Of a stretch of 64,000 bases of DNA, positions 1,267 to 60,641 are shown piece by piece. The translations under genes were made by a program, and so were the position numbers. Positions within the stretch are counted from its first letter, which is position 1; each line of letters opens with the position of its first letter. Below the pieces are notes generated by a model, which worked only from the letters and a program-made list of their open reading frames with translations, made no database searches and had not been told where the DNA came from. The DNA is taken from IMG/VR virus record IMGVR_UViG_3300009031_000221, positions 288,001 to 352,000 of that record; one strand, given 5' to 3'. Origin of the DNA: a virus. Its lineage: Duplodnaviria > Caudoviricetes.

Positions 1267-1307
1267 TTTGTGGGTATTGTTTCTGAACATCTAAAGGAAT
1301 ACAAGAC

Positions 1308-2123: not shown

Positions 2124-2126
2124 TAG

Positions 2127-2153
2127 ACTTACTTCATGTGAATGCGGCGTAGA
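2127..2153 (+). promoter_or_regulatory. Bipartite promoter-like motif (ACTTACTT-N12-GCGTAGA)
   Basis: One of ten fixed-spacing copies; intergenic, upstream of PheRS. Confidence 0.75.
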
Positions 2154-2161
2154 TCCATCCC

Positions 2162-3208
2162 ATGAAGAACAACTGCACAGAACATATTTTAAGTCACATG
2201 CCACGGGCTAAACACCGTAGGCACAATCATCCTATCGAGATTGTCAAGCGTTTGGTGGCGGAACAATTCCCGGGATTCTTCCTGAGGGATACGTTCTCTC
2301 CTTTCGTTTCAGTCGTAGATTGTTTCGATCGTCTGCGGATTCCCGCAGACCACCCTTCTCGAAGTATGTCCGATACGTACTACTTCGATGATGAAACTGT
2401 TCTCCGTACACACATGACGGCGCACACTGTTCCGATGGCTGACACTCGTAAAGGGGAGGGTCTAGCATCTTTTCTCACCTGTGGCGAGGTCTACCGTCGG
2501 GACGAGATCGACCGGACACACTATCCTGTGTTCCATCAACTGGATGGCTTCTGCGTCACGCCCAATGCTGCCGAGGATCTCCTAGCACGATTGCTTGGTG
2601 TTGCCAAGGCTTTGTTCCCCAATGTCCCCGTTCGAGTCCTGCACGAAGGGGTAGATGCGGGGATCTACTTCCCGTTCACGACACAATCCATCGAGATTGA
2701 AGTGGAACTCAACGGTCAATGGGTTGAAATCCTGGGGGGTGGTGTCGTTCATCCTGACATCATGAAGGCCATCGGGCGCAAAGGTGAAGAGGCCTGGGCG
2801 TTCGGTATGGGGTTGGAACGAATCGCCATGGCCATCTGGGACATTCCAGATATTCGTCTGTTCTGGTCGATAGACTCGAGGTTCCTTGATCAGTTCAGCT
2901 ACGAATCAAGGGCACCATTCAAGCCGTTCTCGAATCATCCCGTATGCTACAAGGACATTGCCTTCTGGTATGACGGTGAAATCCAGGACAATGACCTGTA
3001 TGAGATTGTTCGGGGTATTGCCCCGGACATCATCGAACAGATCAAGCTGCTGGATACATTCACGCATCCGAAGACAGGGCGGAAGTCCAAGTGCTATCGG
3101 ATGGATTTCCGCGATCTCTACCGGACATTGACCAATATAGAAGTCAATGATATCAATGACAAGATTCGAGAGGCAGCGGCATTGACTTTGAATGTCGAAC
3201 TGCGGTAG
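2162..3208 (+). CDS. pheS: Monomeric (mitochondrial/organellar-type) phenylalanyl-tRNA synthetase
   Basis: Class II motif 2 YRRDEIDRTHYPVFHQ, motif 3 WAFGMGLERIAM..DIPDIRLFW, then ferredoxin-fold anticodon-binding domain (KDIAFW...HPKTG..S.CYR...RTLT..EVN). Confidence 0.92.
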   Translation: MKNNCTEHILSHMPRAKHRRHNHPIEIVKRLVAEQFPGFFLRDTFSPFVSVVDCFDRLRIPADHPSRSMSDTYYFDDETVLRTHMTAHTVPMADTRKGEGLASFLTCGEVYRRDEIDRTHYPVFHQLDGFCVTPNAAEDLLARLLGVAKALFPNVPVRVLHEGVDAGIYFPFTTQSIEIEVELNGQWVEILGGGVVHPDIMKAIGRKGEEAWAFGMGLERIAMAIWDIPDIRLFWSIDSRFLDQFSYESRAPFKPFSNHPVCYKDIAFWYDGEIQDNDLYEIVRGIAPDIIEQIKLLDTFTHPKTGRKSKCYRMDFRDLYRTLTNIEVNDINDKIREAAALTLNVELR

Positions 3209-6130: not shown

Positions 6131-6157
6131 ACTTACTTTTCCCACGGGATGCGTAGC
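6131..6157 (+). promoter_or_regulatory. Bipartite promoter-like motif (ACTTACTT-N12-GCGTAGC)
   Basis: Upstream of rIIA. Confidence 0.7.
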
Positions 6158-16777: not shown

Positions 16778-17746
16778 TCAATATGACGTGGTGGTCGGGG
16801 AGATGCCATAATACAGAATCTGTTGCTTGACAAGACCTTCATAGACACCAAATCGATTTGCTATAATGGGTATTGGTACCCCTTGATCAATTAATACTTG
16901 AATTATTTCTTTTGGCAAACTGAGTTTGGGCCTGCGTCCTGTATATGTACTTGTGACCAAGTGATGGAGGTCTGCATCAGGCCATGTCCGCTGCCTACCT
17001 TTGGTATTACCAAGGGTGGATAGCGCTGTATGGATAAACCCTATAGGGACCTTCATACCCAGGGCTATATGCTTAGGGGTGCTGCCTGCATCGGTCAGTT
17101 GTCGTACTAGTGCTAGGTCAATCATGCTATTGACTGCATCCATGTCACGACAAAGAAACCCTGCCGCTAACTTATAGCGTAGGGTATCCAGGATATAAGG
17201 CTTGATGATATCGAGGAAGGCACGTGCTTGGACTTCTCCTCGAACCACGATACGTGATGAAGTCCCAACCTCAGCCATCGCTTGAATGCCGAAGTGTGCA
17301 AGGATGGCAAGGGCTACGTCATGACTACGTTCATGACATGAGAACGAGGGCCAGTGTTGGTGCATGCCGTCATCCATATACCACACTGCTAGGGCTAAGG
17401 GTGTCATCATAGGTATGACAGACTCATGGAACTTCTTACGGAGCTTGCCGTCACATGATGGCGTAGAATTGGCATAGAACATTTCCCACCAAGGAAGCAA
17501 TTCATCGTATTTCCGTACACGGAAGCCTACAGCCCCTTGATGAGTAGCCTTCTTTGGGGGTACCTCTGTTAATGTTCCTGCATAATCGCCCCAGTATGCC
17601 ATCTTCCACAGGACATATTCCAACTGCCCCTTGGCATGGAATTCACTATAGGACGCACCTGTGGCGCCACGGCCTAGGGATCCATCCCCAAGCATGGATC
17701 CCAGTAATATTGATTGTAGTGGTTCGGTCAAAACGAGATTTTTCAT
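16778..17746 (-). mobile_element. Free-standing LAGLIDADG homing endonuclease with C-terminal HTH-like repeats
   Basis: ILLGSMLGDG and LALAVWYMDDG motifs, YVLWK. Confidence 0.85.
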
Positions 17747-23550: not shown

Positions 23551-23577
23551 TCTACGCAGGTTGGGCTAGAAGTAAGC
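23551..23577 (-). promoter_or_regulatory. Bipartite promoter-like motif (GCTTACTT-N12-GCGTAGA)
   Basis: Plus strand reads TCTACGC-N12-AAGTAAGC. Confidence 0.75.
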
Positions 23578-39892: not shown

Positions 39893-40864
39893 CTAGTCCG
39901 GTTCATCATTACCCGAAAGGAAGTATCCTTCAGCCGATGGATCGATCTCGGGCATCTTCGCTTTGGGCGGTTCAGGTTGAGGGCCGTTGGTGTTCTCAAG
40001 GGTCTCTATCAGATCCTCGATATTGCCATTTATGACCGGGGGCGTGTACATGATTCGCACCTTGGAATCATACCGACTGGCGAGTACGGACACGAGGCCC
40101 ACGAAGTCCGAAATACTGGTGGGGTCGATGTTCGTGAACTCCTCATCCGATATGTCCGCATCGAACACTCCACTATCCTTCCATGTGAAGGTAGCGAAGC
40201 GCTTGCGGTTGTAATCAATCGTCATTCGGATGTATTCATCGGAAGTGCCGACGGTCAATGTACAATCCGGCTGAGGGTAGGTATTCTTCGGCAAGTACTT
40301 CATCAATTCCGTCGTGGTCTTGATAATGGAGTGTGCCATCGAGGGAGGGCACCCGTTATTGGACAGGAATGTGAAGGTTAGGTTAACGCCACTATCGGGG
40401 ACATAGGGGCGGAGGGTTTTGATATTGTTGATGGCGGCTTGGATAGGGTTCGGGTCAGGCTTGGGCTTGAACCGTACTTCAGGGATACGCTCTGTCCCTA
40501 GGAGACTAGCATTGAAGTGTGCGTTGCATACGGTGCAACGGATGTTCTGGCTACTGCCACCTTCCGGGCCATACTGCAGGGTGTCCCGTAGGCAATCAGG
40601 GCACTTATGGTAGACCAAGAGCCATAGCGTCATGTTGTCAGAATCTGACACGGGACGCTTACGGGAAAGGATGAACAGCTTCACCTTGGCAACCAACCAA
40701 GGCCAAAGGATCTGCCGAGCTAATTGGAATGTTGCCAATATTCCTACCGATAGGGCGAGTAATATGGCAGCCATGAAGGCCACCCAAAAGATATTCTTCC
40801 ACAGTTCTATCATGGTGCATTCCCCAAGTATGGCATTTGTCCTGTATATTTGCAGGTCTCGCAC
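39893..40864 (-). CDS. Membrane-anchored Zn-ribbon protein, DxxDxxG-array member
   Basis: TM helix, CPDC...RC.VC, DPTSISDFVGLVSVL. Confidence 0.65.
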   Translation of the reverse strand: MRDLQIYRTNAILGECTMIELWKNIFWVAFMAAILLALSVGILATFQLARQILWPWLVAKVKLFILSRKRPVSDSDNMTLWLLVYHKCPDCLRDTLQYGPEGGSSQNIRCTVCNAHFNASLLGTERIPEVRFKPKPDPNPIQAAINNIKTLRPYVPDSGVNLTFTFLSNNGCPPSMAHSIIKTTTELMKYLPKNTYPQPDCTLTVGTSDEYIRMTIDYNRKRFATFTWKDSGVFDADISDEEFTNIDPTSISDFVGLVSVLASRYDSKVRIMYTPPVINGNIEDLIETLENTNGPQPEPPKAKMPEIDPSAEGYFLSGNDEPD

Positions 40865-42051
40865 CCAATCAAGGAATCAGGGTCTTGTTTGGGATCCCTT
40901 CCTGTCCCACCGCAAACACGACAGTCAACCATAGGCGGGTACACCCGTCCATTGCCATCACAGGTCTCGCACTCCACGATACGACCCTTGGCAGTAATGA
41001 GCTTGACTCCTGTCCCTTGGCACTTGGTGCATTCGATTTGGGCAGATCCCTTGGCATTGTTTCTTGCCGCCATTGCCTTAGTCGTGTAGGTGTAATTCGG
41101 CCTATTAACAGGGGCAGGAATCGGCGCTTGGCTAGGGTTTTGGAGCGCCGCGATTTCCTCAAACGTCCTGACATAGGAAGGAGGATCGAAGTCCCTCGTC
41201 GGGTATTCATCTACCTCCCCATCATCTTCCTTCTCCGTAACCCCTGTGAGGGCGTAGAGGTAATCCTTAGGCCCCGTGTGCCCATCCAGGATGAAGGGAT
41301 CCAGGATAGCCCTAAGAAGTTGATGTGCTTGCTTATCCTCCGCGGACGGGGCAATACGGGTGATGTCCCCACAACTAAGGGCACGAGGAATGGAAGATGT
41401 CTTGTCATTTGGGTCAATGTGGATTCCATTGGCAGGCACTATCGTATATCCATCCCCCGTAAGGTGCAACATGTCCGATGTCACATCAATGTGATTGCCC
41501 GGGGAGAAGTGATAGGCCTTTCGTGTAGGTTGGTCAAAGAATGCGATCCGCTTATTGACAAAGCAACGGAAAGGCTTCTTGGCGATATTATCCGCGATTT
41601 GCCATACGGTTACGGCGATGGACAGCCACCCAAAGAAGTCCGTTGGATTCTCATTGTCGAGGGATTCCCGAATGATCTCGATGTTATTGGATGCGCCGTC
41701 TTGACGGTATGACAGGATGGCAAGGGTCGCATCCTTATGAAAGTCAAACCGAATCGTCAGCTTCGATGGCGTCGGCAACATGGCGGCAAGGGTGATGGGG
41801 AGGACAGCCCTATCAGGAAGCTCTGGTAGAGCGGGGCTTGGGATTCCCCACTTAGGGGAAGGCTTGGGGGCAATAGGGATCAGGACATTCCAATCGTTTT
41901 CCTTCAAGTCAATGCCATGGTGAGACACTGCCGTATCGATTGCCCCAATGACTTGCTGAGCCAAGATCGCAATGGCACCAATGGCAGTACCGTTCCTAGC
42001 AGGCGGGATAAGGAGTTCTAGTTTGTGGATGTGCGCCATAGGCAAGCTCAT
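40810..42051 (-). CDS. DxxDxxG-array member with C-terminal DnaJ-type Zn finger
   Basis: NENPTDFFGWLSIA; CxxCxGxG x3 plus CETCKYTG. Confidence 0.7.
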   Translation of the reverse strand: MSLPMAHIHKLELLIPPARNGTAIGAIAILAQQVIGAIDTAVSHHGIDLKENDWNVLIPIAPKPSPKWGIPSPALPELPDRAVLPITLAAMLPTPSKLTIRFDFHKDATLAILSYRQDGASNNIEIIRESLDNENPTDFFGWLSIAVTVWQIADNIAKKPFRCFVNKRIAFFDQPTRKAYHFSPGNHIDVTSDMLHLTGDGYTIVPANGIHIDPNDKTSSIPRALSCGDITRIAPSAEDKQAHQLLRAILDPFILDGHTGPKDYLYALTGVTEKEDDGEVDEYPTRDFDPPSYVRTFEEIAALQNPSQAPIPAPVNRPNYTYTTKAMAARNNAKGSAQIECTKCQGTGVKLITAKGRIVECETCDGNGRVYPPMVDCRVCGGTGRDPKQDPDSLIGCETCKYTGQMPYLGNAP

Positions 42052-50607: not shown

Positions 50608-50953
50608 CCTGCTTGAGAACGACTTCCGCCGCATCCGAGGCTGCATCGAATGACGGGAATTCCTTAGGAGCATTGCCTATCGGGTTGCCGTTCATCAAGT
50701 ACTTTCGCGGGCGGGACGGGATGCACATGTATTGCTGATCGAAGCATGATTCAGTCGGGAAACTCACGATGAATGTGTCATCCAACGGTTCCACGAATGC
50801 GGCAGCCCTCTGTGTGTTGTGCGAATACCTGACATAGTAACGATTACCCTCTGTTGATGGCACAGGGATCCATAAAGGTTTGTCCTTATGAGGTCTTTCC
50901 ACATAGGCTACCATCAACAGAAACAGGGCAATGGCTTCTACGTCCGTGTTCAT
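50582..50953 (-). CDS. Hypothetical protein
   Basis: ATGA coupling. Confidence 0.6.
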   Translation of the reverse strand: MNTDVEAIALFLLMVAYVERPHKDKPLWIPVPSTEGNRYYVRYSHNTQRAAAFVEPLDDTFIVSFPTESCFDQQYMCIPSRPRKYLMNGNPIGNAPKEFPSFDAASDAAEVVLKQDLLLAQSA

Positions 50954-51390
50954 ACGGTAAACACTTCCACCGTGCCGTGGTCAACAACAACCACACAGAT
51001 GGCGTCAGGGCCTGCATCCAGCATCTTCTGCTTCGTATCGGGGTCAATGTGACCTACGATGGTCGTCATGCCTTCACGGGCTGCCAAGCCTCGAGCGAAA
51101 GGAACTTGCCCTGCATCTCGCACCGCCTGCCAATCGAATCCAGGCATGAGGGCGTCCGCGATCTCGGCTCCGTAAGGGGCATCGACATGAATCAGGACGA
51201 TGCACACTTCGCTGGGGGAATTGCCCAGATCCTTGATGCGCTGAATGAAGTGCTGCACACGATCGAGTTGGATGTCCATCGTGTTGAAACAGTTGTGCTT
51301 GGCTACTGCCTTGAATAAGGCAAGAGCATCCGGGTCATCCAGATACAGTTCGCCAGTCTCTGGGTGTTTACGTACAACGGCCTGGGTCAT
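50950..51390 (-). CDS. Hypothetical protein
   Basis: GGAGG RBS, downstream of a promoter motif. Confidence 0.7.
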   Translation of the reverse strand: MTQAVVRKHPETGELYLDDPDALALFKAVAKHNCFNTMDIQLDRVQHFIQRIKDLGNSPSEVCIVLIHVDAPYGAEIADALMPGFDWQAVRDAGQVPFARGLAAREGMTTIVGHIDPDTKQKMLDAGPDAICVVVVDHGTVEVFTV

Positions 51391-51407
51391 GGTGTCCTCC
51401 AGGTTGT

Positions 51408-51434
51408 TATACGCACTAGGGGCTAGAAGTAAGC
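51408..51434 (-). promoter_or_regulatory. Bipartite promoter-like motif (GCTTACTT-N12-GCGTATA)
   Basis: Abuts the stop of the last array gene. Confidence 0.7.
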
Positions 51435-51680
51435 CTATCGTAGCTCATGATCATATTCATAGATCACGCCCGGGTCAGAATACCGCAGGACGCTGAATTC
51501 ATCCCGCATTATCCAGGTGTTCAATGCATCTACCTGGAGTAGAGAATGATCTGTCCACACTTCACCCTCATTGGATGGCAAGTAGATCCCCCGAAGATCC
51601 TTTCGGTTAGGTTCTGACCTGGGTTCCATGGTGCCTGTGGAAGTATCGAAGGACTTGTTGGTGTCATACCATTGCGTCAT
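51435..51680 (-). CDS. WxDxxK-array member
   Basis: QWYDTNKSF, EGEV, MRD. Confidence 0.7.
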   Translation of the reverse strand: MTQWYDTNKSFDTSTGTMEPRSEPNRKDLRGIYLPSNEGEVWTDHSLLQVDALNTWIMRDEFSVLRYSDPGVIYEYDHELR

Positions 51681-51684
51681 AGGG

Positions 51685-51933
51685 TCACCATTTAAGTTTG
51701 TCATCCCAAGGAAGCAAATGGCGGATTGAACTGTCCAGATTATGATAGGTATCCCGAATGCGATGAATCTTCTGATCCGATGCTAGTAACGAGAAATCCT
51801 CGAACACACGCCCTTCGCCCTGAGGAATAGGGTCGGGGTCATTGGATTCTATAGGGTAGCCCGCCTCCCCGAATTCCTTGGTGGTGTCATACCAGCATTG
51901 CATGCTAATCGCCCTCATACAGGACAATGACAT
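51685..51933 (-). CDS. WxDxxK-array member
   Basis: CWYDTTKEF, EGRVF, IRD. Confidence 0.7.
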   Translation of the reverse strand: MSLSCMRAISMQCWYDTTKEFGEAGYPIESNDPDPIPQGEGRVFEDFSLLASDQKIHRIRDTYHNLDSSIRHLLPWDDKLKW

Positions 51934-52117
51934 CCTTATCCAAGACTACATAGGGATCTCGAATGGATCTAACGTGTATTTCGGAATTCGTTATGGAGTA
52001 ATCCGGGAATACACGTCCTTCTGCGGTATCGAATCTATTATCTTCTGCCCCGGCATTCACAGGGTCTAGAGGGCTCGTGGATCCGAATCTTTTGAGGGTG
52101 TCATACCAGCTATTCAT
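51905..52117 (-). CDS. WxDxxK-array member
   Basis: SWYDTLKRF, EGRVFP, IRD. Confidence 0.7.
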   Translation of the reverse strand: MNSWYDTLKRFGSTSPLDPVNAGAEDNRFDTAEGRVFPDYSITNSEIHVRSIRDPYVVLDKDVIVLYEGD

Positions 52118-52437
52118 CGTTTGTGCCTATAGAGGTAGCCGGTGCCTACTTGTGGTGTTCCGGATTCCAGTTCTGTATGATCGTTCAGAATCCGCATAAT
52201 GATTCCGAGGGGCTCAGGATCCCAACACTCTACAGTCGTCACATCATCCAAATAGCTTGTTTCACCATCTAATAGGCATGCCCCGGTATCGATAGCGGAA
52301 CTGACACTCGACTTGAATTGCTTGTGCTTGTCCGACCAGTTGTGGCTAAATATCCATGTCTTTTCTAGGTCATTCATGGGGTTCCACGCTGAAATATCGG
52401 TCATTGCCAAAGCCATCATCATCCGGCACGGATGCAA
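52114..52437 (-). CDS. WxDxxK-array member
   Basis: NWSDKHKQF. Confidence 0.7.
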   Translation of the reverse strand: MHPCRMMMALAMTDISAWNPMNDLEKTWIFSHNWSDKHKQFKSSVSSAIDTGACLLDGETSYLDDVTTVECWDPEPLGIIMRILNDHTELESGTPQVGTGYLYRHKR

Positions 52438-52660
52438 CCTCTAACTTTGTGTCATCGTATAGGTACTGCATGATTACTTCAATCGGGCGTGGATCATCGT
52501 AGTAATCGCTAATATCCTCATCCAAACGATCCATATCTCCCACCACCAACTTGGATACAGAATCTTCCCCCTTGATATTGATGTCCCCTTCAAAGTGCTT
52601 GGACTGATCCGACCAGTTACGGCTGAAGGTGATATTTCTAGCCCTGAGGGAAGTATTCAT
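52370..52660 (-). CDS. WxDxxK-array member
   Basis: NWSDQSKHF. Confidence 0.7.
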   Translation of the reverse strand: MNTSLRARNITFSRNWSDQSKHFEGDINIKGEDSVSKLVVGDMDRLDEDISDYYDDPRPIEVIMQYLYDDTKLEVASVPDDDGFGNDRYFSVEPHE

Positions 52661-52944
52661 CAGGTACGCTCATACCTGAGGCTGAATGAACCTAAAGGGA
52701 CCTCCGCCATCTCAAGGGTGGATAGGTCTATCAGGTGTTTCTTGTTGACAGGGATCATGCCATGATCATTTAGACGAGCCTTCATGTCATCCCGTACAAA
52801 GGGATTCTCCCAATTAGACAGCCTTGATGCCGTGTCATCCTCGTAATTCGTAAATGATTCGAACTCTTTGCCTGCATCCGACCATTGGTAGAACGTCGTT
52901 GGGTTTAGACGATACTCGAATTTATTCATCGGGCACCCTTCCAA
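52660..52944 (-). CDS. WxDxxK-array member
   Basis: QWSDAGKEF. Confidence 0.7.
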   Translation of the reverse strand: MEGCPMNKFEYRLNPTTFYQWSDAGKEFESFTNYEDDTASRLSNWENPFVRDDMKARLNDHGMIPVNKKHLIDLSTLEMAEVPLGSFSLRYERT

Positions 52945-53297
52945 ATATCACCGGGATCCGCAACCTCTAGGAACGTGTTGTCTGGCAAAGGTATCTTATA
53001 GATGGGGATCAGATCGGGATCGGTTATCCAAGTATTTCTATCGCGTACCGCAAGAATATCTTCCCCCCGGTTCAATCTCGACACGGAATCAAGTCCGAAG
53101 TCCACAGTGGAGTAAAAATGCTTATCACAGTCCGACCAGATGGATCTATGTGTCATGTCACGGGGTTGTTCTAGGCTAATACTACTCATGTGGGTGTAGC
53201 AACAATCCTGTGTGGCTGTATTCCTTGATGCGTCCCTCAAGGGGGTTGAGGGCGTCCTCTTGATCCTCCACAGCACCTGAATATTCAGGCACGCCAC
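52926..53297 (-). CDS. WxDxxK-array member (true start probably internal)
   Basis: IWSDCDKHF. Confidence 0.65.
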   Translation of the reverse strand: MACLNIQVLWRIKRTPSTPLRDASRNTATQDCCYTHMSSISLEQPRDMTHRSIWSDCDKHFYSTVDFGLDSVSRLNRGEDILAVRDRNTWITDPDLIPIYKIPLPDNTFLEVADPGDIWKGAR

Positions 53298-53403
53298 GGG
53301 TCAAGATGAAACCCTCGGTATCGGCCATGGTCATGCCAATCACCGCACCGTAGCGCTTCAGGTCATCCCACCATACGTTTCTATCTGGTTGTTGTCCGTT
53401 CAT
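53182..53403 (-). CDS. WxDxxK-array member
   Basis: WWDDLKRY. Confidence 0.65.
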   Translation of the reverse strand: MNGQQPDRNVWWDDLKRYGAVIGMTMADTEGFILTRGVPEYSGAVEDQEDALNPLEGRIKEYSHTGLLLHPHE

Positions 53404-53615
53404 ATTGCCTCATAGTCGGCCTTGTCTCGAAGCCTCCGGGGATCGTCATCGCTGTCAAGTTTCCTTGCGTCATGTTCATGGGATATATCCGTGGAGAAAT
53501 CTATTACTGACGATTCATAATCAGGTATGAACTTCTGGTAATGAACCACGCTGCAATTGTTATTGTAGTCATAGCCATAGCGTTTCGTTTGGTCGAACCA
53601 ACTCATTGTTGCCAT
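53400..53615 (-). CDS. WxDxxK-array member
   Basis: SWFDQTKRY, DPRRLRD. Confidence 0.7.
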   Translation of the reverse strand: MATMSWFDQTKRYGYDYNNNCSVVHYQKFIPDYESSVIDFSTDISHEHDARKLDSDDDPRRLRDKADYEAI

Positions 53616-53617
53616 GA

Positions 53618-53833
53618 CTAGTATATCACCTCATCCCGGAGTTTACGCCCGTCATCCATGTTGGATAGCCATCGGCCATCACTTTTCCACAAGGAGTTTG
53701 CGCTACCCTTCATGGAGTTATCATTGAGCGTTTGGTTGTCCCGAAAATAGAGATTGGAGGGAAATACTTTCCCTCCCCCGCGGGATTCCAGGTGGAAGCT
53801 CTTCGATTGATCCGACCATGCCCAGTCTACCAT
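53618..53833 (-). CDS. WxDxxK-array member
   Basis: AWSDQSKSF, GKVFP, GRKLRD. Confidence 0.7.
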   Translation of the reverse strand: MVDWAWSDQSKSFHLESRGGGKVFPSNLYFRDNQTLNDNSMKGSANSLWKSDGRWLSNMDDGRKLRDEVIY

Positions 53834-54036
53834 GATTCCCCCTTGTCCCGAATCCTTCTAGGGTCATGTTCACCCCCGATTGTCTTAGGTTCCGTTTCCC
53901 AATCGATTTCCCCATCCCCAAAGATCTCTATGAACCCCTTCTCCACGAGGTACCTAGGGTATCGCACCCGCCCTTCCCCATAGGAGTCCCCGCTATACCC
54001 CTTCAAGGAATCAAACCAGGACATACCTTGCATCAT
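53827..54036 (-). CDS. WxDxxK-array member
   Basis: SWFDSLKGY, EGRV, DPRRIRD. Confidence 0.7.
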   Translation of the reverse strand: MMQGMSWFDSLKGYSGDSYGEGRVRYPRYLVEKGFIEIFGDGEIDWETEPKTIGGEHDPRRIRDKGESW

Positions 54037-54038
54037 AG

Positions 54039-54245
54039 CTATATCGCGTCCCGAAGCATTTTAGGGTCATCCCTAAACTCGAGGATGATTCTGGGTTCTG
54101 CCCTCTCATCGATTTCACAATCTTCATATTCAGATAGGGCATGTCGTCGCTCATCTACTAGGTATCTAGGAGGATGCACCCTTCCTTCCATCCATCCCCC
54201 GGTGAATTTCTTGGCCTGATCTGACCATGCCCATGCTCCAATCAT
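54039..54245 (-). CDS. WxDxxK-array member
   Basis: AWSDQAKKF, EGRV, DPKMLRD. Confidence 0.7.
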   Translation of the reverse strand: MIGAWAWSDQAKKFTGGWMEGRVHPPRYLVDERRHALSEYEDCEIDERAEPRIILEFRDDPKMLRDAI

Positions 54246-54481
54246 CGGTTTTCCTTCTCATAATTGTCATTGATTCTTCGCCCTTCGTCGAAGATCTCGA
54301 GGGCATCACGTTCCCAGTCAAATTCGGGTTCCGTATCTACATCGTACAAGGATTGATCCCCTAATAGGTAGCGCATAGGGTATACCTTCCCTTCCAACAC
54401 ATCGAAACCAAGCTGTCCTTCTGACGGACAGTAGAAGCGTTTCGTTTGGTCATGCCATGACCTTTCTAGCATGATTCGCAC
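54242..54481 (-). CDS. WxDxxK-array member
   Basis: SWHDQTKRF, EGKVYP. Confidence 0.7.
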   Translation of the reverse strand: MRIMLERSWHDQTKRFYCPSEGQLGFDVLEGKVYPMRYLLGDQSLYDVDTEPEFDWERDALEIFDEGRRINDNYEKENR

Positions 54482-54750
54482 ACTTCCAAGGAATCATAGA
54501 CAGACTCCTTGTAGGTTGTGTCGTTTATTGTCTTCCCGTGTATCTCTCTATAGCAGGGCAGGATCCAGGTTGTCTTGTCAATGACTAGATTCGGATCCCA
54601 AGTGATAGTGCTAGGGGATTCCAGCATCCCAAATACATGCTCCCATGCCTTTCTAGTATCATTCCATGCCGGGGTCATGACGAAGTACAGGCCTCCGTGG
54701 TTCCCCGTGGAATCGAAATTCAGGTTGATCATTGGAAATCCCCCGTACAT
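54466..54750 (-). CDS. WxDxxK-array member
   Basis: AWNDTRKAW. Confidence 0.65.
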   Translation of the reverse strand: MYGGFPMINLNFDSTGNHGGLYFVMTPAWNDTRKAWEHVFGMLESPSTITWDPNLVIDKTTWILPCYREIHGKTINDTTYKESVYDSLEVCESC

Positions 54751-55037
54751 AGTATATCTTGGAAAAGATCATCAGGCTCCCACGTATCATCTACGTCTCC
54801 ACTTTGAACATGCACATAACGGGGAAAAACACCGCCTGATTTGATGTCGGGATTCTTAGGATACCAGAATATACCGCTAGGGTGCTCGTGCTCCTCATCG
54901 GATCGCTGCCAGCACTTTCCATGTTCACTCCAATACCGATACTCAAATGCCCGAATAGGTTTGTCATGGTCAAGATCTGTCATGATTCCCAGTCCCCATC
55001 GCATAGCTGCTCTTGACAATGATCCCCAGGTTCCCAA
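54729..55037 (-). CDS. WxDxxK-array member
   Basis: YWSEHGKCW, PSG. Confidence 0.7.
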   Translation of the reverse strand: MGTWGSLSRAAMRWGLGIMTDLDHDKPIRAFEYRYWSEHGKCWQRSDEEHEHPSGIFWYPKNPDIKSGGVFPRYVHVQSGDVDDTWEPDDLFQDILCTGDFQ

Positions 55038-55351
55038 TGGTCATCTATAAACCCGCCTTGAGGATGAACATAACGAGGAGATATTATGCCCGTAACACCA
55101 TCAGGGCTCATATGATATGAGTATAGACCACTAGGATTGTCATGTTCTTCCTCGGATAGTTCCCACCGCTTTTCACGTTCATTCCAATAGCGATACGGGA
55201 ACGCCTGAATCGGTTTGTCCTGGTCAAGTTCCGCATACATCAGACGCCATCTCCGGATATCAGGGCGTGGTTCCCCCACCCTCTTCATCAACAAGCCTTC
55301 CATCAGGAATATGTGCAAATCGCGGATGGAACTTGTAGGTATGTGGCGCAT
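54980..55351 (-). CDS. WxDxxK-array member
   Basis: YWNEREKRW, PSG; close paralog of 54729. Confidence 0.7.
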   Translation of the reverse strand: MRHIPTSSIRDLHIFLMEGLLMKRVGEPRPDIRRWRLMYAELDQDKPIQAFPYRYWNEREKRWELSEEEHDNPSGLYSYHMSPDGVTGIISPRYVHPQGGFIDDHWEPGDHCQEQLCDGDWES

Positions 55352-55484
55352 CTACGTTGGATATGCCACAAAGGATTCCTGTAGGGGATTCCGCATCTAC
55401 AAAAAGCTCAACCCATTCATTGAACCCTTCATACCAATAGCGCTGAGCCCGTGTAGCAGGCGTATCATCAAGGTCATATTGCAT
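55260..55484 (-). CDS. WxDxxK-array member (divergent)
   Basis: YWYEGFNEW, PTG. Confidence 0.6.
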   Translation of the reverse strand: MQYDLDDTPATRAQRYWYEGFNEWVELFVDAESPTGILCGISNVDAPHTYKFHPRFAHIPDGRLVDEEGGGTTP

Positions 55485-55855
55485 TATGACCCCGACCGTT
55501 GTGCACTGACATAGTCCCCAACATACAGAATCTGATGTGTGGCATCATAGGGGCTATGCATCTCCTCAATGAGGTTTCCTGGGGCGTATCTGTAATCGGG
55601 CTGAATTGATCGAATGGCGTAATCGAGACGTTCGCCGTCATCATTAAAAATGCTGCTGGGGGTATCCATAGCCTCTGTCCTATAGAACCAAGTGTGGAAT
55701 TCATCGTTCCAATGCCAAAGCGGTGACGTGAAACTGAATCTCGTAGCGTCAAGATCAGATTGCATTGCACACCGAAGCTGCTTTTTCCCGTGTCTTCTTC
55801 CGTTTTGCCCTCTCCGCCCTTCTCCGGTTGTCCCCCCGTTTCTTGTACTCTGCAT
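55484..55855 (-). CDS. WxDxxK-array member (true start probably MQSDL)
   Basis: HWNDEFHTW, PSS. Confidence 0.6.
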   Translation of the reverse strand: MQSTRNGGTTGEGRRGQNGRRHGKKQLRCAMQSDLDATRFSFTSPLWHWNDEFHTWFYRTEAMDTPSSIFNDDGERLDYAIRSIQPDYRYAPGNLIEEMHSPYDATHQILYVGDYVSAQRSGS

Positions 55856-56117
55856 GAAGTGCTTTCAGGGGCTCGAGCATGGAATTGATCCAGGCGATGC
55901 GTTCGGCAGGGAACTTGGTATCGAGCTTTGCTGGCGGAATGCTACCCTTGGCATTGTTGCAAGGGGCACATGCGGGCACGATGTTGCCAATATTGCTATA
56001 GCCACCCAAGGAACGTGGAACCCAGTGGTCGATGGTTATAGGTAGATCTGTACGTCCACAGTAGACACATACATGCCCAAAGTGCTGAAGGGTTGCCTGC
56101 CATGATTTAGCGCTCAT
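55755..56117 (-). CDS. HNH endonuclease (McrA/HNH_5-like)
   Basis: CVYCG...TIDHWVPRS.GG.....N.VPAC..CN..KG. Confidence 0.88.
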   Translation of the reverse strand: MSAKSWQATLQHFGHVCVYCGRTDLPITIDHWVPRSLGGYSNIGNIVPACAPCNNAKGSIPPAKLDTKFPAERIAWINSMLEPLKALHAEYKKRGDNRRRAERAKRKKTREKAASVCNAI

Positions 56118-56434
56118 GTGTCATGTTTGGTCCGAACGACCCCTGGACGTTTATTGAAGTGCATATAGGACATACCTGATTCGCAGGATCCTGTAAAGTC
56201 CCCCTGCAGTATCATGTCATCCCCAGGATAGTTATATCCACCAAAGCCTCTGCCCGTATCTACTAAGGGGGCGTGATCCTCATAAATGTACATGGGATGT
56301 ATATCATTGTCATCTAGGAATGTTAGATGCCTATCAAGGACGATCCCGCTGACATCTTCATACCCCCAGGCAGAGCACCACCGCTTACCGATGTCATCCC
56401 AGTTGAATATGCCTTCTCTCATCGGGCTTCCCAC
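56114..56434 (-). CDS. WxDxxK-array member
   Basis: NWDDIGKRW, GYED.SGI. Confidence 0.7.
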   Translation of the reverse strand: MGSPMREGIFNWDDIGKRWCSAWGYEDVSGIVLDRHLTFLDDNDIHPMYIYEDHAPLVDTGRGFGGYNYPGDDMILQGDFTGSCESGMSYMHFNKRPGVVRTKHDT

Positions 56435-56724
56435 TCAGGGCTACGGAGTACCCCCGTGCCATTATGAATGACATAGTATTCGTAGCCGGGTCTATTTTCC
56501 TTCATGCCTGGAAAGTCGTCAATCATTAGAAGATCCTGTGATCCTTGTATGTACCCATTGAGATTAGGGGTTGAATCCTGAATGGGTTGTTTTGGCATGT
56601 CATCGTACATGGGAACGACAGCATTTTCAGCCCATACCCGATTTCCAGATATGATCCCACTGGAATCCTCGTAGCCCATTCCCGGGCGCCATTCCTTCTT
56701 GGATTCGTTCCAATTACGTGTCAT
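56419..56724 (-). CDS. WxDxxK-array member
   Basis: NWNESKKEW, GYED.SGI. Confidence 0.7.
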   Translation of the reverse strand: MTRNWNESKKEWRPGMGYEDSSGIISGNRVWAENAVVPMYDDMPKQPIQDSTPNLNGYIQGSQDLLMIDDFPGMKENRPGYEYYVIHNGTGVLRSPEWEAR

Positions 56725-57017
56725 AGCGTTCTCAACAGGATTGTCAATCCGCCATCCTCATCCCGAATTCGAATGTTACCCCGATTTATGTAACCGTTGT
56801 AATTGTAATCCCCAATCATGAGTCGCTCTTCAGGCATTTTGAAATCCCAAAGCATTGGTTCATCAAAGGGTTTATCCCTCAAGGAGGCTACCGGCAACTC
56901 CACATACAAGGGTTTACTTGTGTTGTCCCTATCCAGGTTAGGGACCTCCCAGAACCCGCTTTCAGGCTTCTGCGAGTAGATCCAAGTCTTGTACTGGTCA
57001 CTCCATTGTTGGCTCAT
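56721..57017 (-). CDS. WxDxxK-array member
   Basis: QWSDQYKTW. Confidence 0.7.
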   Translation of the reverse strand: MSQQWSDQYKTWIYSQKPESGFWEVPNLDRDNTSKPLYVELPVASLRDKPFDEPMLWDFKMPEERLMIGDYNYNGYINRGNIRIRDEDGGLTILLRTL

Positions 57018-57226
57018 TGGGGCTCATCATAGAGGCCTTCCTCATTTAGGATGCCTTCAGGAAGGAGGTTTTCTTTGGCGTAGATCGTAGATTCCGCATT
57101 CATCATGCGATGGTTTTTAGCGATGTTTTCTAGCACTGGAGGATTGGGCAATAGGGGCGGGAGCTTGCCTGGAATGGTTGATCCAAAGGCTTTCCATGAA
57201 TCTGCCCAGAAGGTAGTATCCGACAT
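57014..57226 (-). CDS. WxDxxK-array member
   Basis: FWADSWKAF. Confidence 0.65.
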   Translation of the reverse strand: MSDTTFWADSWKAFGSTIPGKLPPLLPNPPVLENIAKNHRMMNAESTIYAKENLLPEGILNEEGLYDEPQ

Positions 57227-57456
57227 TATTTGGCCTCCCCATAGAGACCGTCCCGCTTACGGATACTACATTGGATGTTCTCAGGGTCATATCCAAGTAT
57301 GAATCGGGCGTATTCATAGTCGTTAATCTCATGGATGCCTTCATCCAAGATCTGGTTATCCGCTACGATGACCGAAATCCCATCGAAACGCTGAGTGGCA
57401 CCCCAGCATTTCCAAGCATCCCACCATGCCCAATCAGATCTGGATGCTAGCGGCAT
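57226..57456 (-). CDS. WxDxxK-array member
   Basis: AWWDAWKCW. Confidence 0.65.
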   Translation of the reverse strand: MPLASRSDWAWWDAWKCWGATQRFDGISVIVADNQILDEGIHEINDYEYARFILGYDPENIQCSIRKRDGLYGEAK

Positions 57457-57719
57457 TCAACATCCTCCTCGTAGAGGTCATCCTCTTCCCGGAGATACCC
57501 CTCAGGCAGCCTTCCACCTTCCCACTGGTTTATGGTCTGGGCATCTACATTGGATATGTCAGCGCGGTCATCATCGCTATGCGTGGGTATATCGGAAAGA
57601 AGGCTTCCACCTTCGGATAGGGACCATGAATTGGCCCATCCTTTCCAATGGTCATACCAAACACGCCTATGGGATCTCACAGCAACTCTTGCGCCCTGGT
57701 CAGGATGATCTCCTGGCAT
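57447..57719 (-). CDS. WxDxxK-array member (first in transcription order)
   Basis: VWYDHWKGW. Confidence 0.65.
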   Translation of the reverse strand: MPGDHPDQGARVAVRSHRRVWYDHWKGWANSWSLSEGGSLLSDIPTHSDDDRADISNVDAQTINQWEGGRLPEGYLREEDDLYEEDVECR

Positions 57720-58999
57720 TGTGCGGGAGTCATGCCCTGGGTCTTGGCAACAATAACATTTGCCTCATCATCAGGCAACATGCGCTTTGCCATCTGCAAC
57801 CGACCCTCATCCGTGATGGTGTCAGGCGTGTGCAACGTGCGGTCTACACGGCCCGGACGCGGACGGGTTTCCCCTACCGTGATAGTCCCATCGGATTCCT
57901 GAACAGCCGGGCCACCCAAGGCCTGATCTACCTGATCCAGGTAGTTCGTGGTGATGATGCTCAGCAAACCGTCATTGCTGCCTACACCCTGCAACTGGTT
58001 GAGGAGGAGGTCAAACGTCGGCGGTGTGCCCTTCTGGATGTTCGGCTGCTTTGCAGTACGGGCATTGTAGACGGAATCCAGGTCTTCCAATAGGACAAGG
58101 CAAGGCACGTTCGAACGTGCCATGTCAAATGCACTGGTCAAGTCGGCGTTGGTCATCGACTGGAGGTCAAGCAGGTAGATCGGAATGTCCAAGTCAATGG
58201 CAATGGCCCGAGCCAAGGAGGTCTTGCCCGTACCCGGCCGGCCGTGAACGAGGTAGCCACGCCGCCAAGGCAAACGGTGCTCCAAGTACCACTCCTGATT
58301 GGTATTCCACTGGCGGGCATCCTCGAGGATGTGCATGACATCTGCCGGGAGCCAGAGGTCATCCGGCGCCCCCGAGTGCTTCGGATCGCCAATGTCATTG
58401 GGATCCTCGGTCAAGTAGTATGCCGTCGCGGGCTTGTCCGTGAATGGGGAAGATCCACCGTGAGTGGCACGGTCATTGCCTTCCTTTCCGCCATTGCCAC
58501 CATTGCCCCCAACGCGAATCAACTTGTAGCGATTGCGCTTGCGGTCGTTGTTGGTCTTCACGATGTCCCGGAGCATCTGTTCGAAGTCCAACGTGCCGCG
58601 GAAGTAGCGGATGGTCATCTGCGTACCATCCTTGCCACGGTCTACCCATACGGGGATCTTGATCCAACGCTTCTTGATCCAGAAGGTCAAGCCGCCGTCC
58701 TTGTCAAGCCAACGCGACAGAATCCACTGTTGCTTGCGCTTTGAACGGACGAACTTGGAAATGACCATGTATCCACGGCTTCCCAACTTCGAGGGCTTGG
58801 CAATCAGGCTGAATGCCGTGATCACTTCAGCGGACAAGTCCGCATCTACCTTGGATACGCAAACGAGGTGCGTACTCATGGTGCTGAAGAACGATTTGAT
58901 CCTGTTCCAGAAAGCGATAACCATACCGATGATGGCAGGGATTGCCCATAGCGGCAACCAATCGGGCATGAAGGACTTGAGCATATCCATGGGGGGCAT
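57677..58999 (-). CDS. BCS1-like membrane-anchored AAA+ ATPase
   Basis: N-terminal TM helix; WY....PWRRGYL.HG.PGTGKTS, LLEDLD, LLN.L.G, IITTN, RPGR.D. Confidence 0.85.
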   Translation of the reverse strand: MPPMDMLKSFMPDWLPLWAIPAIIGMVIAFWNRIKSFFSTMSTHLVCVSKVDADLSAEVITAFSLIAKPSKLGSRGYMVISKFVRSKRKQQWILSRWLDKDGGLTFWIKKRWIKIPVWVDRGKDGTQMTIRYFRGTLDFEQMLRDIVKTNNDRKRNRYKLIRVGGNGGNGGKEGNDRATHGGSSPFTDKPATAYYLTEDPNDIGDPKHSGAPDDLWLPADVMHILEDARQWNTNQEWYLEHRLPWRRGYLVHGRPGTGKTSLARAIAIDLDIPIYLLDLQSMTNADLTSAFDMARSNVPCLVLLEDLDSVYNARTAKQPNIQKGTPPTFDLLLNQLQGVGSNDGLLSIITTNYLDQVDQALGGPAVQESDGTITVGETRPRPGRVDRTLHTPDTITDEGRLQMAKRMLPDDEANVIVAKTQGMTPAQCQEIILTRAQELL

Positions 59000-59012
59000 T
59001 GGGGCATTCTCC

Positions 59013-59705
59013 TTAGATGGTCATAGCTTGTTGTGCGGTAGCACATGGGTTGAATTCGACATTGGTACGCAGGAACACTTCACTTCGCAGGTCGGTATGG
59101 CAGGGATGCATGAGTTCTACAATTACATTGGTGGCGGCACACCTCGCATCTACATCTACATCATTGGCATAGTAATACGCGGCATACGCCGCAATATTAC
59201 ATGGATGTGCCCAACCTGAGATGTCCTTTTTCTTTTGACCTTCGGCTGATTCCACTGTCCGATCTTCACCGGAGAGCCACTTGTTCGCCCAATCCTTCCA
59301 ATCAACGTCATCCGCTACTTGCAATGCCGTGAGGATGCCAAATCGGACGAATTGTTCCGTTGTGGGGTAAGCGAAGTCTGTGATTTCCTTTGTGAGAGTC
59401 AATTGGGTTGACCCGCCCTTCAAGGGCTCCCTGATGATAGTGCCGTCCGCTTCTGCCTCAAACATCCGTAGGCTGGATGGATTGAAGTTGCCGTGTACCC
59501 CATTCATGAATAGAGCGAGGGCAGGATCCTCGTACCAGTGTAGGAATGATGCAGAACAAAGCCCCTGGCATATGTTACTGTGCCTATGGGCACTAGTTTC
59601 ATACGTTTCCCCGACAAACCATTGAAACCCTCTGAAGGTTTGCATGTTCTTATCAGTTAGCTTGTAAACCTTCATCACTTCTCCGAAAAGTCTCGTTCGC
59701 ACCAT
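59013..59705 (-). CDS. Distant DUF7666-like protein
   Basis: YKLTD...T...FQW..G, LCS..FLHWY..P.LA, W..WA.KWLSGEDR; likely start MKVYK. Confidence 0.6.
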   Translation of the reverse strand: MVRTRLFGEVMKVYKLTDKNMQTFRGFQWFVGETYETSAHRHSNICQGLCSASFLHWYEDPALALFMNGVHGNFNPSSLRMFEAEADGTIIREPLKGGSTQLTLTKEITDFAYPTTEQFVRFGILTALQVADDVDWKDWANKWLSGEDRTVESAEGQKKKDISGWAHPCNIAAYAAYYYANDVDVDARCAATNVIVELMHPCHTDLRSEVFLRTNVEFNPCATAQQAMTI

Positions 59706-60046
59706 AGGGTCGTCAGTCCGCCATCAGAATTGCCACACCATAGCATCCGGCAAAGCTGCTTGAGCCCGTTCCTGGACGTGCGATGGTCAAACTCCATGCA
59801 CTGCGTAGGGCCAGTGTTGTTGAAGATCTGGATGGCAAAATCGTAAGGGTGAATGGAATCCAGGGAGCGGACATCTTTCGGGGGCTCTGGTACTGCTGGG
59901 GCTTGTACGGGAGCTTGTACGGGGGATTGTACGGCAGCCGGAGCAACCCCCTTGTTCCCGAATAGAATCACCATCACGGCAGCCGTGCCTAATATTGCAG
60001 TGCAGAATGCTAGCAAACCTTTCATTTTCCCGCCCTCTTCAAGCAT
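59675..60046 (-). CDS. Membrane-anchored protein with Pro/Ala linker; C-terminal motif shared with 47817
   Basis: TM helix, VQAP repeats, CRMLWCG...GGLTTLWC. Confidence 0.6.
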   Translation of the reverse strand: MLEEGGKMKGLLAFCTAILGTAAVMVILFGNKGVAPAAVQSPVQAPVQAPAVPEPPKDVRSLDSIHPYDFAIQIFNNTGPTQCMEFDHRTSRNGLKQLCRMLWCGNSDGGLTTLWCERDFSEK

Positions 60047-60285
60047 CCAGGGCAGATCCAGCCCTCAGCTTTGTTGTACTTCCAACCACGATTGACGGCA
60101 TCCGCCTTGATCTTTGGCATGGTCACTTTGCCATCGCAGTCCAATCGATCCCAATCCCCGCATTGGCCGCAGAAGACCTCATAGGCAATACGGATAACGC
60201 CCAGGATAGGGCCTGGGGTGTACCCCTCGCACTTGAACGTGGATTCAGGAAGTTTCAACATGTCCGCAACGCTGATCTCTGTCAT
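60022..60285 (-). CDS. Small Zn-finger protein
   Basis: FCGQC...WICPGC. Confidence 0.6.
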   Translation of the reverse strand: MTEISVADMLKLPESTFKCEGYTPGPILGVIRIAYEVFCGQCGDWDRLDCDGKVTMPKIKADAVNRGWKYNKAEGWICPGCLKRAGK

Positions 60286-60305
60286 AGCGGTATCCTCCAG
60301 GTGGA

Positions 60306-60332
60306 TCTACGCATACCAGTCTAGAAGTAAGC
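60306..60332 (-). promoter_or_regulatory. Bipartite promoter-like motif (GCTTACTT-N12-GCGTAGA)
   Basis: Plus strand TCTACGC-N12-AAGTAAGC; heads the run leading into BCS1 and the array. Confidence 0.75.
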
Positions 60333-60335
60333 CTA

Positions 60336-60641
60336 TCAGGGACGATCACTCACGATAGCGGAAGTCGGATCACAGTTCGGGTATACCTTGTAGAGCGCTA
60401 TTGGAGTGCCCCGCACGCAATACATGTGCTGACATCCACCGATATAGATGAATCGGCATTGAGGCATCCCGATAGAGGAGGTTCCCTCTGACGGTGGGAT
60501 AGGCGCCAGATGAGAATCAGCCTGCCGCGAGTTCCGATAGGCCACTGCGATTACGAATCCAAATAACATGAATAGAATAGCGATTAGGGTGCGAAACCTA
60601 ACAATCCCGTCCCATACAATGTCCAAGAAGCTGAAGTTCAC
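60336..60641 (-). CDS. Small membrane protein
   Basis: TM helix and Cys-rich C-terminus. Confidence 0.55.
   Translation of the reverse strand: MNFSFLDIVWDGIVRFRTLIAILFMLFGFVIAVAYRNSRQADSHLAPIPPSEGTSSIGMPQCRFIYIGGCQHMYCVRGTPIALYKVYPNCDPTSAIVSDRP

Follow-up and report, generated by a model that had tools for sequence, protein, structure and literature searches.

Two kinds of described viral protein families combine a short conserved element with remainders that differ from copy to copy. The internal proteins of bacteriophage T4 (IPI-III) carry a short conserved capsid targeting sequence on small, fast-evolving proteins encoded at a plastic locus, and the ankyrin/PRANC proteins of poxviruses are numerous paralogues with one short conserved docking module and diversified remainders. 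As for Bcs1-type AAA+ ATPases, Iyer et al. drew attention in 2021 to BCS1 orthologues of jumbo phages and speculated that they translocate folded proteins for head packaging; neither a client nor a role has been assigned to them (PMC7824862). The Bacillus subtilis protein YjoB has been described as a chambered, substrate-specific chaperone (PMC9565160). Here we describe an array of 24 small genes that directly follows the gene of a Bcs1-type ATPase in a tailed phage (Duplodnaviria; Caudoviricetes). The window, that is, the whole stretch of 64,000 nucleotides (nt) that was analyzed, comprises positions 288001-352000 of the 536,053-bp IMG/VR virus record IMGVR_UViG_3300009031_000221 (52% G+C), which comes from a groundwater metagenome.

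The 24 genes, duplicated in tandem and specific to this lineage, encode one family of small acidic proteins rich in tryptophan and tyrosine, and a tryptophan-anchored motif, x-W-x-[DE]-x-x-K-x-[FWY], is their only family-wide element. The array matches the poxvirus proteins in concept, with no relation in sequence or fold, and the putative machine is here a phage-encoded AAA+ ATPase, not a host ubiquitin ligase. In contrast to the targeting sequence of IPI-III, the array motif is found in no other gene of its genome, is predicted to be a hairpin rather than a cleaved leader and is internal in the proteins of sister phages, and the locus is not near recognisable structural genes. Neither for Bcs1 and YjoB nor for the phage orthologues of PMC7824862 has a downstream family of small genes such as that of this ATPase been described. 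Judged by the sequence searches reported below, the small-protein family is undescribed, and so is, as far as the searched literature shows, the conserved pairing of small genes with a phage Bcs1-type ATPase; the phenomenon as such, small ORFan genes that have expanded in tandem in particular lineages of very large phages, is not new.

A tandem family of 24 small proteins

From position 57719 down to 51435 on the minus strand, 25 open reading frames (ORFs) form an unbroken chain; 24 of them (51435-57680) belong to one family, and the remaining one is an HNH endonuclease gene. Neighbouring genes abut or overlap by 1-11 nt (ATGA, TAATG or GTGA), gaps are at most 17 nt, and GGAG-type ribosome-binding sites precede several genes. 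Gene lengths were assigned using start codons that abut or overlap the preceding stop codon, most of which agree with database gene calls; with these coupled starts the products have 68-102 amino acids (aa).

Of the 24 products, 22 contain the motif in its strict form, W.[DE]..K.[FWY], and the other two have H or N in place of K, whereas residue shuffles of the same proteins (n=5000) contained it 0.064 times on average and three times at most. Six-frame translation of the whole genome yields 24 matches, of which 22 lie inside the array, all of them on the minus strand. The tryptophan is invariant and stands at a median of 7.5 residues from the protein start; the acidic position is D in 20 products and E in four, K is found in 22 of 24, and the aromatic residue at +7 is F (11), W (10) or Y (3). 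Position +8 is most often G, and aromatic residues recur at -2 and +9. A family profile recovers all 24 members (E = 2.5e-18 to 4e-5) and no further ORF in the rest of the genome below E = 3.6. Family-wide identity is about 18%, only about eight residues being common to the copies.

The products are acidic, with an isoelectric point of 4.3-5.1 in 23 of 24 (6.5 in the remaining one, which has net charge 0) and net charges from 0 to -13. Enriched residues are W (2.4x), Y (1.8x), D (1.7x) and E (1.5x), whereas A and V are depleted; the products are not rich in Cys, Ser or Thr. Twenty of the 24 fall on the disordered side of the charge-hydropathy boundary, compared with 17% of background segments.

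Shuffle-normalised pairwise comparison (Z-scores) groups the genes into blocks along the array: a1-3, a5-6 (Z = 19), a7-11 (Z = 43 for a9 and a10), a12-16, a18-21 and a22-24. Similarity drops with gene-order distance (Spearman -0.28, permutation p = 0.0005), which argues for serial local duplication. DNA repeats within the array extend only across the 25-40 nt encoding the motif (62-77% identity), and the copies are therefore old and diverged rather than recent duplicates.

An earlier reading of the window, based on the sequence only, had proposed about 24 tandem, hyper-diverged, mostly acidic small proteins sharing this motif, with subfamilies of neighbours consistent with serial local duplication. 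All of this holds, and the motif is significant against shuffled controls. Two details changed: one ORF in the span proved to be the HNH endonuclease gene (PF01844), leaving 24 family genes, and the sizes of 68-123 aa given then were lengths of the longest ORFs, replaced here by those from coupled starts.

The region 51000-60400 was assembled identically in four samples of one groundwater study, at a depth of up to ~229x, so the array is no artefact of assembly. Its G+C content (0.486-0.503) is slightly below that of the flanks (0.53-0.54). When the six frames of each array gene are scored with a codon model derived from 149 long ORFs of this phage, the annotated frame comes out best for all 24. 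All 24 reading frames are intact, and the tightly coupled genes show no decay. The chain consists of the following genes, in the order of transcription:

57447-57680, minus strand: a1, 77 aa, WYDHWKGW; its GTG start overlaps the TGA of the ATPase gene (GTGA), with an alternative ATG at 57719
57226-57456, minus strand: a2, 76 aa, WWDAWKCW, block a1-3
57014-57226, minus strand: a3, 70 aa, WADSWKAF, block a1-3
56721-57017, minus strand: a4, 98 aa, WSDQYKTW
56419-56724, minus strand: a5, 101 aa, WNESKKEW, GYED.SGI subfamily, Z = 19 with a6
56114-56422, minus strand: a6, 102 aa, WDDIGKRW, block a5-6
55755-56117, minus strand: HNH endonuclease, 120 aa, not a family member (PF01844, E = 1.8e-11; HNH families of PHROG)
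55484-55765, minus strand: a7, 93 aa, WNDEFHTW (H for K), block a7-11
55260-55484, minus strand: a8, 74 aa, WYEGFNEW (N for K), block a7-11
54980-55240, minus strand: a9, 86 aa, YRYWNEREKRW, Z = 43 with a10
54729-54983, minus strand: a10, 84 aa, YRYWSEHGKCW, block a7-11
54466-54732, minus strand: a11, 88 aa, WNDTRKAW, block a7-11
54242-54472, minus strand: a12, 76 aa, WHDQTKRF, block a12-16
54039-54245, minus strand: a13, 68 aa, WSDQAKKF, block a12-16; the member folded with AlphaFold2 (AF2)
53827-54036, minus strand: a14, 69 aa, WFDSLKGY, block a12-16
53618-53833, minus strand: a15, 71 aa, WSDQSKSF, block a12-16
53400-53615, minus strand: a16, 71 aa, WFDQTKRY, block a12-16
53182-53403, minus strand: a17, 73 aa, WWDDLKRY
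52926-53189, minus strand: a18, 87 aa, WSDCDKHF, block a18-21
52660-52929, minus strand: a19, 89 aa, WSDAGKEF, block a18-21
52370-52660, minus strand: a20, 96 aa, WSDQSKHF, block a18-21; modelled in the ESM Atlas
52114-52377, minus strand: a21, 87 aa (the database gene call begins 13 codons earlier), WSDKHKQF, block a18-21
51905-52117, minus strand: a22, 70 aa, WYDTLKRF, block a22-24
51685-51903, minus strand: a23, 72 aa, WYDTTKEF, block a22-24
51435-51680, minus strand: a24, 81 aa, WYDTNKSF, block a22-24; the last gene of the array

The HNH gene, which appears to be free-standing, fits without a gap between a6 and a7, overlapping the stop codon of a6 with its start (ATGA) and the start of a7 with its 3' end (11 nt). 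It is a possible homing element that could promote recombination in the array. At the other end of the proteins, a [LIVM][YW] pair occurs in the last 12 residues of nine of the 24 members (a1-3, a11, a15, a18, a21, a22 and a24; 4.2 expected, p ~0.015); it could be a second shared element of some subfamilies, weak and not family-wide.

Database searches and structure prediction

Searching 50,697 phage records with the array by blastn gave no match. The 24-member profile, run against 1.84 billion representative proteins, retrieved only proteins of this phage and three long ones (678-5817 aa), which were matched in several stretches and were taken as spurious. Nothing significant was found for any of the 24 members in Pfam (best E = 0.036, one member) or PHROGs v4 (best E = 0.033, one member), nor by profile search in the PDB, where the best match was the Mu tail-fibre assembly protein U (E = 0.18); this match and that to an actin helix (WDDMEKIW, E ~1) are both at chance level. 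In the same three general libraries, no member matched a known counter-defence family. The family, already thought to be uncharacterised, thus corresponds to no known one in these searches.

The AF2 model of a13, built from a 40-sequence alignment, has a predicted local distance difference test score (pLDDT) of 64.5 and a predicted template modelling score of 0.24. A hairpin with strands at residues 5-8 and 13-16 is its only regular, moderately confident element (pLDDT ~75), the rest being low; D-x-x-K makes the turn, and W and the +7 aromatic residue face each other. The ESM Atlas models of a5 (pLDDT 0.25) and a20 (0.39) had no usable neighbours. A fold shared by the members, envisaged in the sequence-only reading, did not emerge from these poor models beyond the hairpin. 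The moderate confidence of the prediction and the i/i+2 periodicity of aromatic residues on both sides of the turn suggest that the motif forms a beta-hairpin.

Hairpins of a comparable kind are known from the cold-shock domain (CSD), where beta1-beta2 has the sequence KWFNxxKGFGF in CspA, and from trpzip, the designed tryptophan zippers. The spacing of the array motif, which we take to be that of the CSD hairpin, is W (0), [DN] (+2), K (+5), aromatic (+7) and often G (+8), and the aromatic residues at -2/0 and +7/+9 would fit cross-strand pairs as in the CSD hairpin and trpzip. Membership in the CSD family (PF00313) was rejected: none of the 24 members gave a CSD match even at E <= 10, the PDB profile search returned no CSD chains, and one hairpin is predicted rather than a five-stranded barrel. 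The likeness is to one structural element and not one of membership.

The upstream ATPase and the transcription unit

The gene preceding the array encodes a protein with a single classic AAA domain (PF00004); BCS1_N of Pfam was not detected at the sequence level. In a phmmer search of the PDB, Bcs1 chains (E = 3.6e-22 to 2e-21) were level with Cdc48 D2. The AF2 model (pLDDT 89.5) consists of an N-terminal transmembrane helix (residues 19-45), a beta-rich middle domain (46-163) and the AAA domain; the twelve PDB matches that Foldseek ranks highest for it are without exception full-length Bcs1 (E = 9e-22 to 2e-15, TM up to 0.66, 412-481 aligned columns), followed by chains of the Bcs1 AAA domain and then by B. 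subtilis YjoB. The AAA region is 39-42% identical to annotated BCS1 proteins and has in common with them the segment WY..RG.P[WY]RRGYL before Walker A (WY..RG.PWRRGYL in the phage protein), a short stretch between Walker A and B, and the lack of an aromatic pore loop (pore-loop-1). An insertion of ~18 residues (GGPAVQESDGTITVGETRP) before the RPGRVD arginine-finger segment (residues ~362-380, window ~57860-57916) is found in the ATPases of the phage clade and is absent from eukaryotic BCS1 proteins. Sequence and model together support the gene product being a genuine Bcs1-type AAA+ ATPase over its whole length.

The ATPase gene and the array belong to a run of genes bracketed by two copies of a promoter-like motif:

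60305-60336, minus strand: promoter-like motif ATAGGCTTACTTCTAG-N8-TGCGTAGAT, which opens the unit and is followed by GGAGGA and ATG
60022-60285, minus strand: first gene of the unit, an ORF for an 87-aa protein with two Cys pairs (Zn-ribbon-like), without Pfam match
59675-60046, minus strand: ORF for a 123-aa protein with an N-terminal hydrophobic segment, without significant Pfam match
59013-59705, minus strand: 230-aa DUF7666 protein (PF24703, E = 2.9e-8)
57677-58999, minus strand: membrane-anchored Bcs1-type AAA+ ATPase, 440 aa (PF00004, AF2, Foldseek, shared motif)
51407-51438, minus strand: next copy of the promoter-like motif, which begins at the a24 stop codon and opens the unit that follows, with a 146-aa gene at 50950-51390

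The unit thus reads Zn-ribbon-like gene, membrane protein, DUF7666 protein, ATPase, array. The bipartite motif, (R)CTTACTTY-N11-TGCGTAGAT, has 42 copies in the genome (counted as CTTAC-N12-16-TGCGTA), which lie mainly in the 109-524 kb part of the minus strand and usually 5-55 nt before a start codon. Those in the window are at 6132 on the plus strand and at 23576, 27115, 51433 and 60331 on the minus strand; the last two flank the operon, and none lies between them. Scans for sigma-70 promoters and terminators revealed no enrichment. Other genes headed by the motif encode an NAD synthase, a metallo-beta-lactamase fold protein, a DUF4419 protein, an AAA protein, a cytidylyltransferase and a HATPase protein, and none of the recognisable structural genes is headed by it. 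The motif is probably a phage-specific promoter class, and its position before auxiliary rather than structural genes suggests that it marks a non-structural expression class, in which case the array would be expressed in the non-structural phase of infection.

The GTG start of a1 overlapping the ATPase stop codon, the lack of an internal copy of the promoter-like motif and the lack of an excess of terminator-like sequences are consistent with co-transcription of the array with the ATPase. Three further proposals of the sequence-only reading, namely that the ATPase is BCS1-like, that the array is co-transcribed behind it and that it ends at a promoter motif, agree with these results.

Conservation of the pairing in sister phages

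Single-protein scans of IMG/VR and JGI metagenomes identified no close relatives of the ATPase; a protein index instead yielded homologues with 45-68% identity, encoded on metagenomic contigs of several independent origins. Wherever downstream DNA is available, small genes follow the ATPase gene in the same orientation, and in six of the eight sister-phage contigs with such DNA (ATPase 47-68% identical) motif-bearing small genes lie directly behind it. The loci, with the identity of their ATPases, are:

L101, 67%: one 76-aa gene overlapping the ATPase stop codon, AWSDQFKAW
L102, 66%: at least three small genes, WDDHLKEW and variants
L004, 64%: about six small genes downstream and one upstream
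L005, 64%: about seven small genes
L003, 47%: two or three small genes, one of which ends in the RLRD tail of subfamily a12-16
L089, 55%: one gene with a variant motif
L002, 59%: small acidic genes with no recognisable motif
L006, 66%: small genes with no recognisable motif
P0010 contig (gene calls only), 58%: six small acidic genes (55-76 aa), of which the first overlaps the stop codon of the ATPase gene

The upstream neighbours of the ATPase gene differ among these loci. When 15,277 ORFs of 86 loci were searched with a profile of the 24 members from this phage alone, matches in the relatives barely reached significance (E = 0.014-0.84), yet the four best all belong to L004 and L005, where they lie no more than ~1.3 kb behind the ATPase. 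The number of small genes ranges from one to about seven in the sister phages, where the sequence-only reading had asked for copy numbers, and reaches 24 here; this series points to a single ancestral partner gene that expanded. With small genes that bear the motif retained right behind the orthologous ATPase in sister phages, the link between array and ATPase is stronger than could be seen from the window itself.

One protein of a sister phage (L005, 7210-7437) has two consecutive copies of the motif (VWFDSRKAW … VWWDSRNIV; …HVWFDSRKAWVDGTVRVWWDSRNIV…). The hairpin unit itself can therefore duplicate, which fits the hairpin prediction, and the doubled motif suggests a small beta-meander.

Genes in the neighbourhood of the sister loci are non-structural (rIIB-like, Dam and other methylases, SSAP/YqaJ). 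On the P0010 contig, a Tad2-like gene (PF11195, the anti-Thoeris sponge family) is located ~2.5 kb past the ATPase and ~1.3 kb beyond the last of the six small genes, which hints at counter-defence genes in this region.

More distant full-length homologues of the ATPase (29-33% identity, residues ~3-430) are common in genomes and metagenome-assembled genomes of Pirellulaceae/Planctomycetota (L105-L123), for example in the Stieleria marina K23_9 chromosome (L120, 7716916-7730247), a distribution that may reflect which hosts the phage clade infects or where the gene came from.

Possible roles of the array

The data fit an ancestral two-gene module of a Bcs1-type ATPase and a fast-evolving small hairpin protein. 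We tentatively prefer to see the array as an expanded panel of partners, clients or adaptors of the phage Bcs1-like machine, a role that we consider possible rather than probable. It is suggested by the adjacency of ATPase and small genes that is conserved in sister phages, sometimes with overlap of the stop codon, by the single transcription unit in which the a1 start overlaps the ATPase stop, by the blind profile whose best matches fall behind sister ATPases, and by the promoter-like motif that otherwise precedes auxiliary genes. The type of the ATPase also speaks for it, as Bcs1 and YjoB handle folded clients in a chamber (PMC9565160). One invariant element joined to bodies that vary block by block is how a shared docking element would be expected to look.

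Under this partner hypothesis, an ancestral small gene behind the ATPase would have multiplied, giving 3-7 copies in some phages and 24 in this one. The predicted hairpin would be the common handle recognised by the ATPase ring or chamber, the ring would enclose folded proteins rather than thread them, as Bcs1 and YjoB do, and the acidic bodies, having diversified, would act as distinct cargoes or as modules that bind targets. The small proteins would thus contact the ATPase physically, and it would load them, hand them over or translocate them at the host inner membrane in the non-structural phase of infection.

Several observations weigh against such a partnership. Downstream small genes of L002 and L006 lack a recognisable motif. 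The motif, near the protein start in the array as the earlier idea of a constant N-terminal docking motif had it, is found 20-45 residues from the start in sister phages, behind an acidic extension; it is therefore not intrinsically N-terminal, and that part of the idea did not stand. Full-length ATPase homologues at 29-37% identity have no such downstream genes on the phage contigs L007-L014, L103 and L173-L176 or in Planctomycetota (Pirellulaceae) genomes, including the complete Stieleria marina chromosome, and 83 further loci with distant ATPase homologues contain no array; the ATPase family therefore needs no such partner. Among related phages of one clade, genes can remain neighbours through inherited synteny, with no functional tie. 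Co-folding of ATPase residues 46-440 with a13 scored 0.00, which is evidence neither for nor against binding. Finally, small size, acidity, fast evolution and a place in a non-structural region are typical traits of phage genes for lone host-directed inhibitors.

A bolder version, in which the Bcs1-type translocase uses the Trp-hairpin as a signal to move a library of folded acidic effectors across or to the host inner membrane, is in our view quite improbable. If true, it would provide a previously unknown, Sec- and Tat-independent route of effector delivery in infected bacteria and the first client set for any non-mitochondrial Bcs1. For the partnership in general, this locus and the sister loci supply concrete client candidates that are genetically tied to the ATPase and have a mutable 8-residue motif, along with a natural series of copy numbers (1, 3-7, 24). 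Should the link be true, they would form a tractable system for studying how a Bcs1-type chamber recognises folded clients and what huge phages do at the host membrane.

Alternatively, the proteins may be stand-alone host-takeover or anti-defence binders, each body inhibiting or sequestering a different host protein, with the hairpin as a folding nucleus or generic binding element; the place behind the ATPase would then reflect shared timing and inherited gene order, with no partnership. We hold this to be nearly as likely as the partnership. Small, acidic, aromatic-rich and hyper-diverged proteins, lineage-specific and without homologues beyond a narrow phage clade, would suit such a role, and so would an operon under the promoter-like class that heads auxiliary genes, sister loci that place the module among non-structural genes (including the Tad2-like gene of the P0010 contig) and the distant ATPase homologues that lack the family. 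However, no member matches Pfam or PHROG, including the counter-defence families therein, and independent binders leave unexplained why the family, where present, is always immediately behind an orthologue of the ATPase, sometimes overlapping its stop codon. A single invariant hairpin over 24 otherwise unrelated bodies likewise suggests a common partner. If the link to the ATPase is not true, the array still offers a clear case, in a 536-kb phage, of an effector family that is hyper-diverged and anchored by a motif, and a screen for its host targets would be worthwhile.

It is very improbable that the products are internal proteins packaged into the virion. In that case the hairpin would target them to the capsid or portal, and the ATPase, in the role proposed by Iyer et al. 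for phage BCS1, would load proteins in folded form while heads assemble near the membrane. T4 internal proteins, which are small and fast-evolving and share a short targeting peptide, offer a precedent, but the array motif, confined as it is to the array genes within the 536-kb genome, is not shared with head proteins, and the operon lies among non-structural genes under an auxiliary-type promoter-like motif; both disfavour packaging into the head. Moreover, no element resembling a protease site consistently follows the motif.

A transient ORFan expansion with little or no function, spread by recombination and possibly aided by the HNH gene, is highly improbable. It would account for a 24-copy expansion known only from this phage, for the endonuclease gene inside the array and for copies that share only about eight residues. 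Against it stand 24 intact frames that all score best as annotated, the invariant W and nearly invariant D/E and K despite low overall identity and diverged DNA, the tight gene coupling without decay, and the orthologous small genes that persist in sister phages.

Precursors of ribosomally synthesized and post-translationally modified peptides, with a conserved leader motif and a variable core, are hardly credible even though an N-proximal conserved motif, a variable remainder and many tandem copies recall prochlorosin-type arrays, because the operon and its flanks have no radical SAM, YcaO, lanthipeptide synthetase or peptidase/exporter gene, the products are 68-102 aa long, acidic and not rich in Cys, Ser or Thr, and the motif is internal in sister phages. 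Roles other than those listed account for the rest of the probability.

Other observations

Three clustered matches to the array motif in L040, an unrelated phage contig (IMGVR_UViG_3300005861_000020), were rejected as an artefact of a translated non-coding repeat of ~96 nt. The repeat belongs to a non-coding tandem array at positions 900-3000 of that contig, with at least 19 diverged units that are mostly spaced by 77-100 nt.

Elsewhere in the window, the genes at 2162-3208 (plus strand) and 16778-17746 (minus strand) encode a phenylalanyl-tRNA synthetase alpha-type protein (tRNA-synt_2d and FDX-ACB, E = 1e-47) and a LAGLIDADG endonuclease, and the gene at 40810-42051 (minus strand) has a weak match to a DnaJ-type zinc finger.

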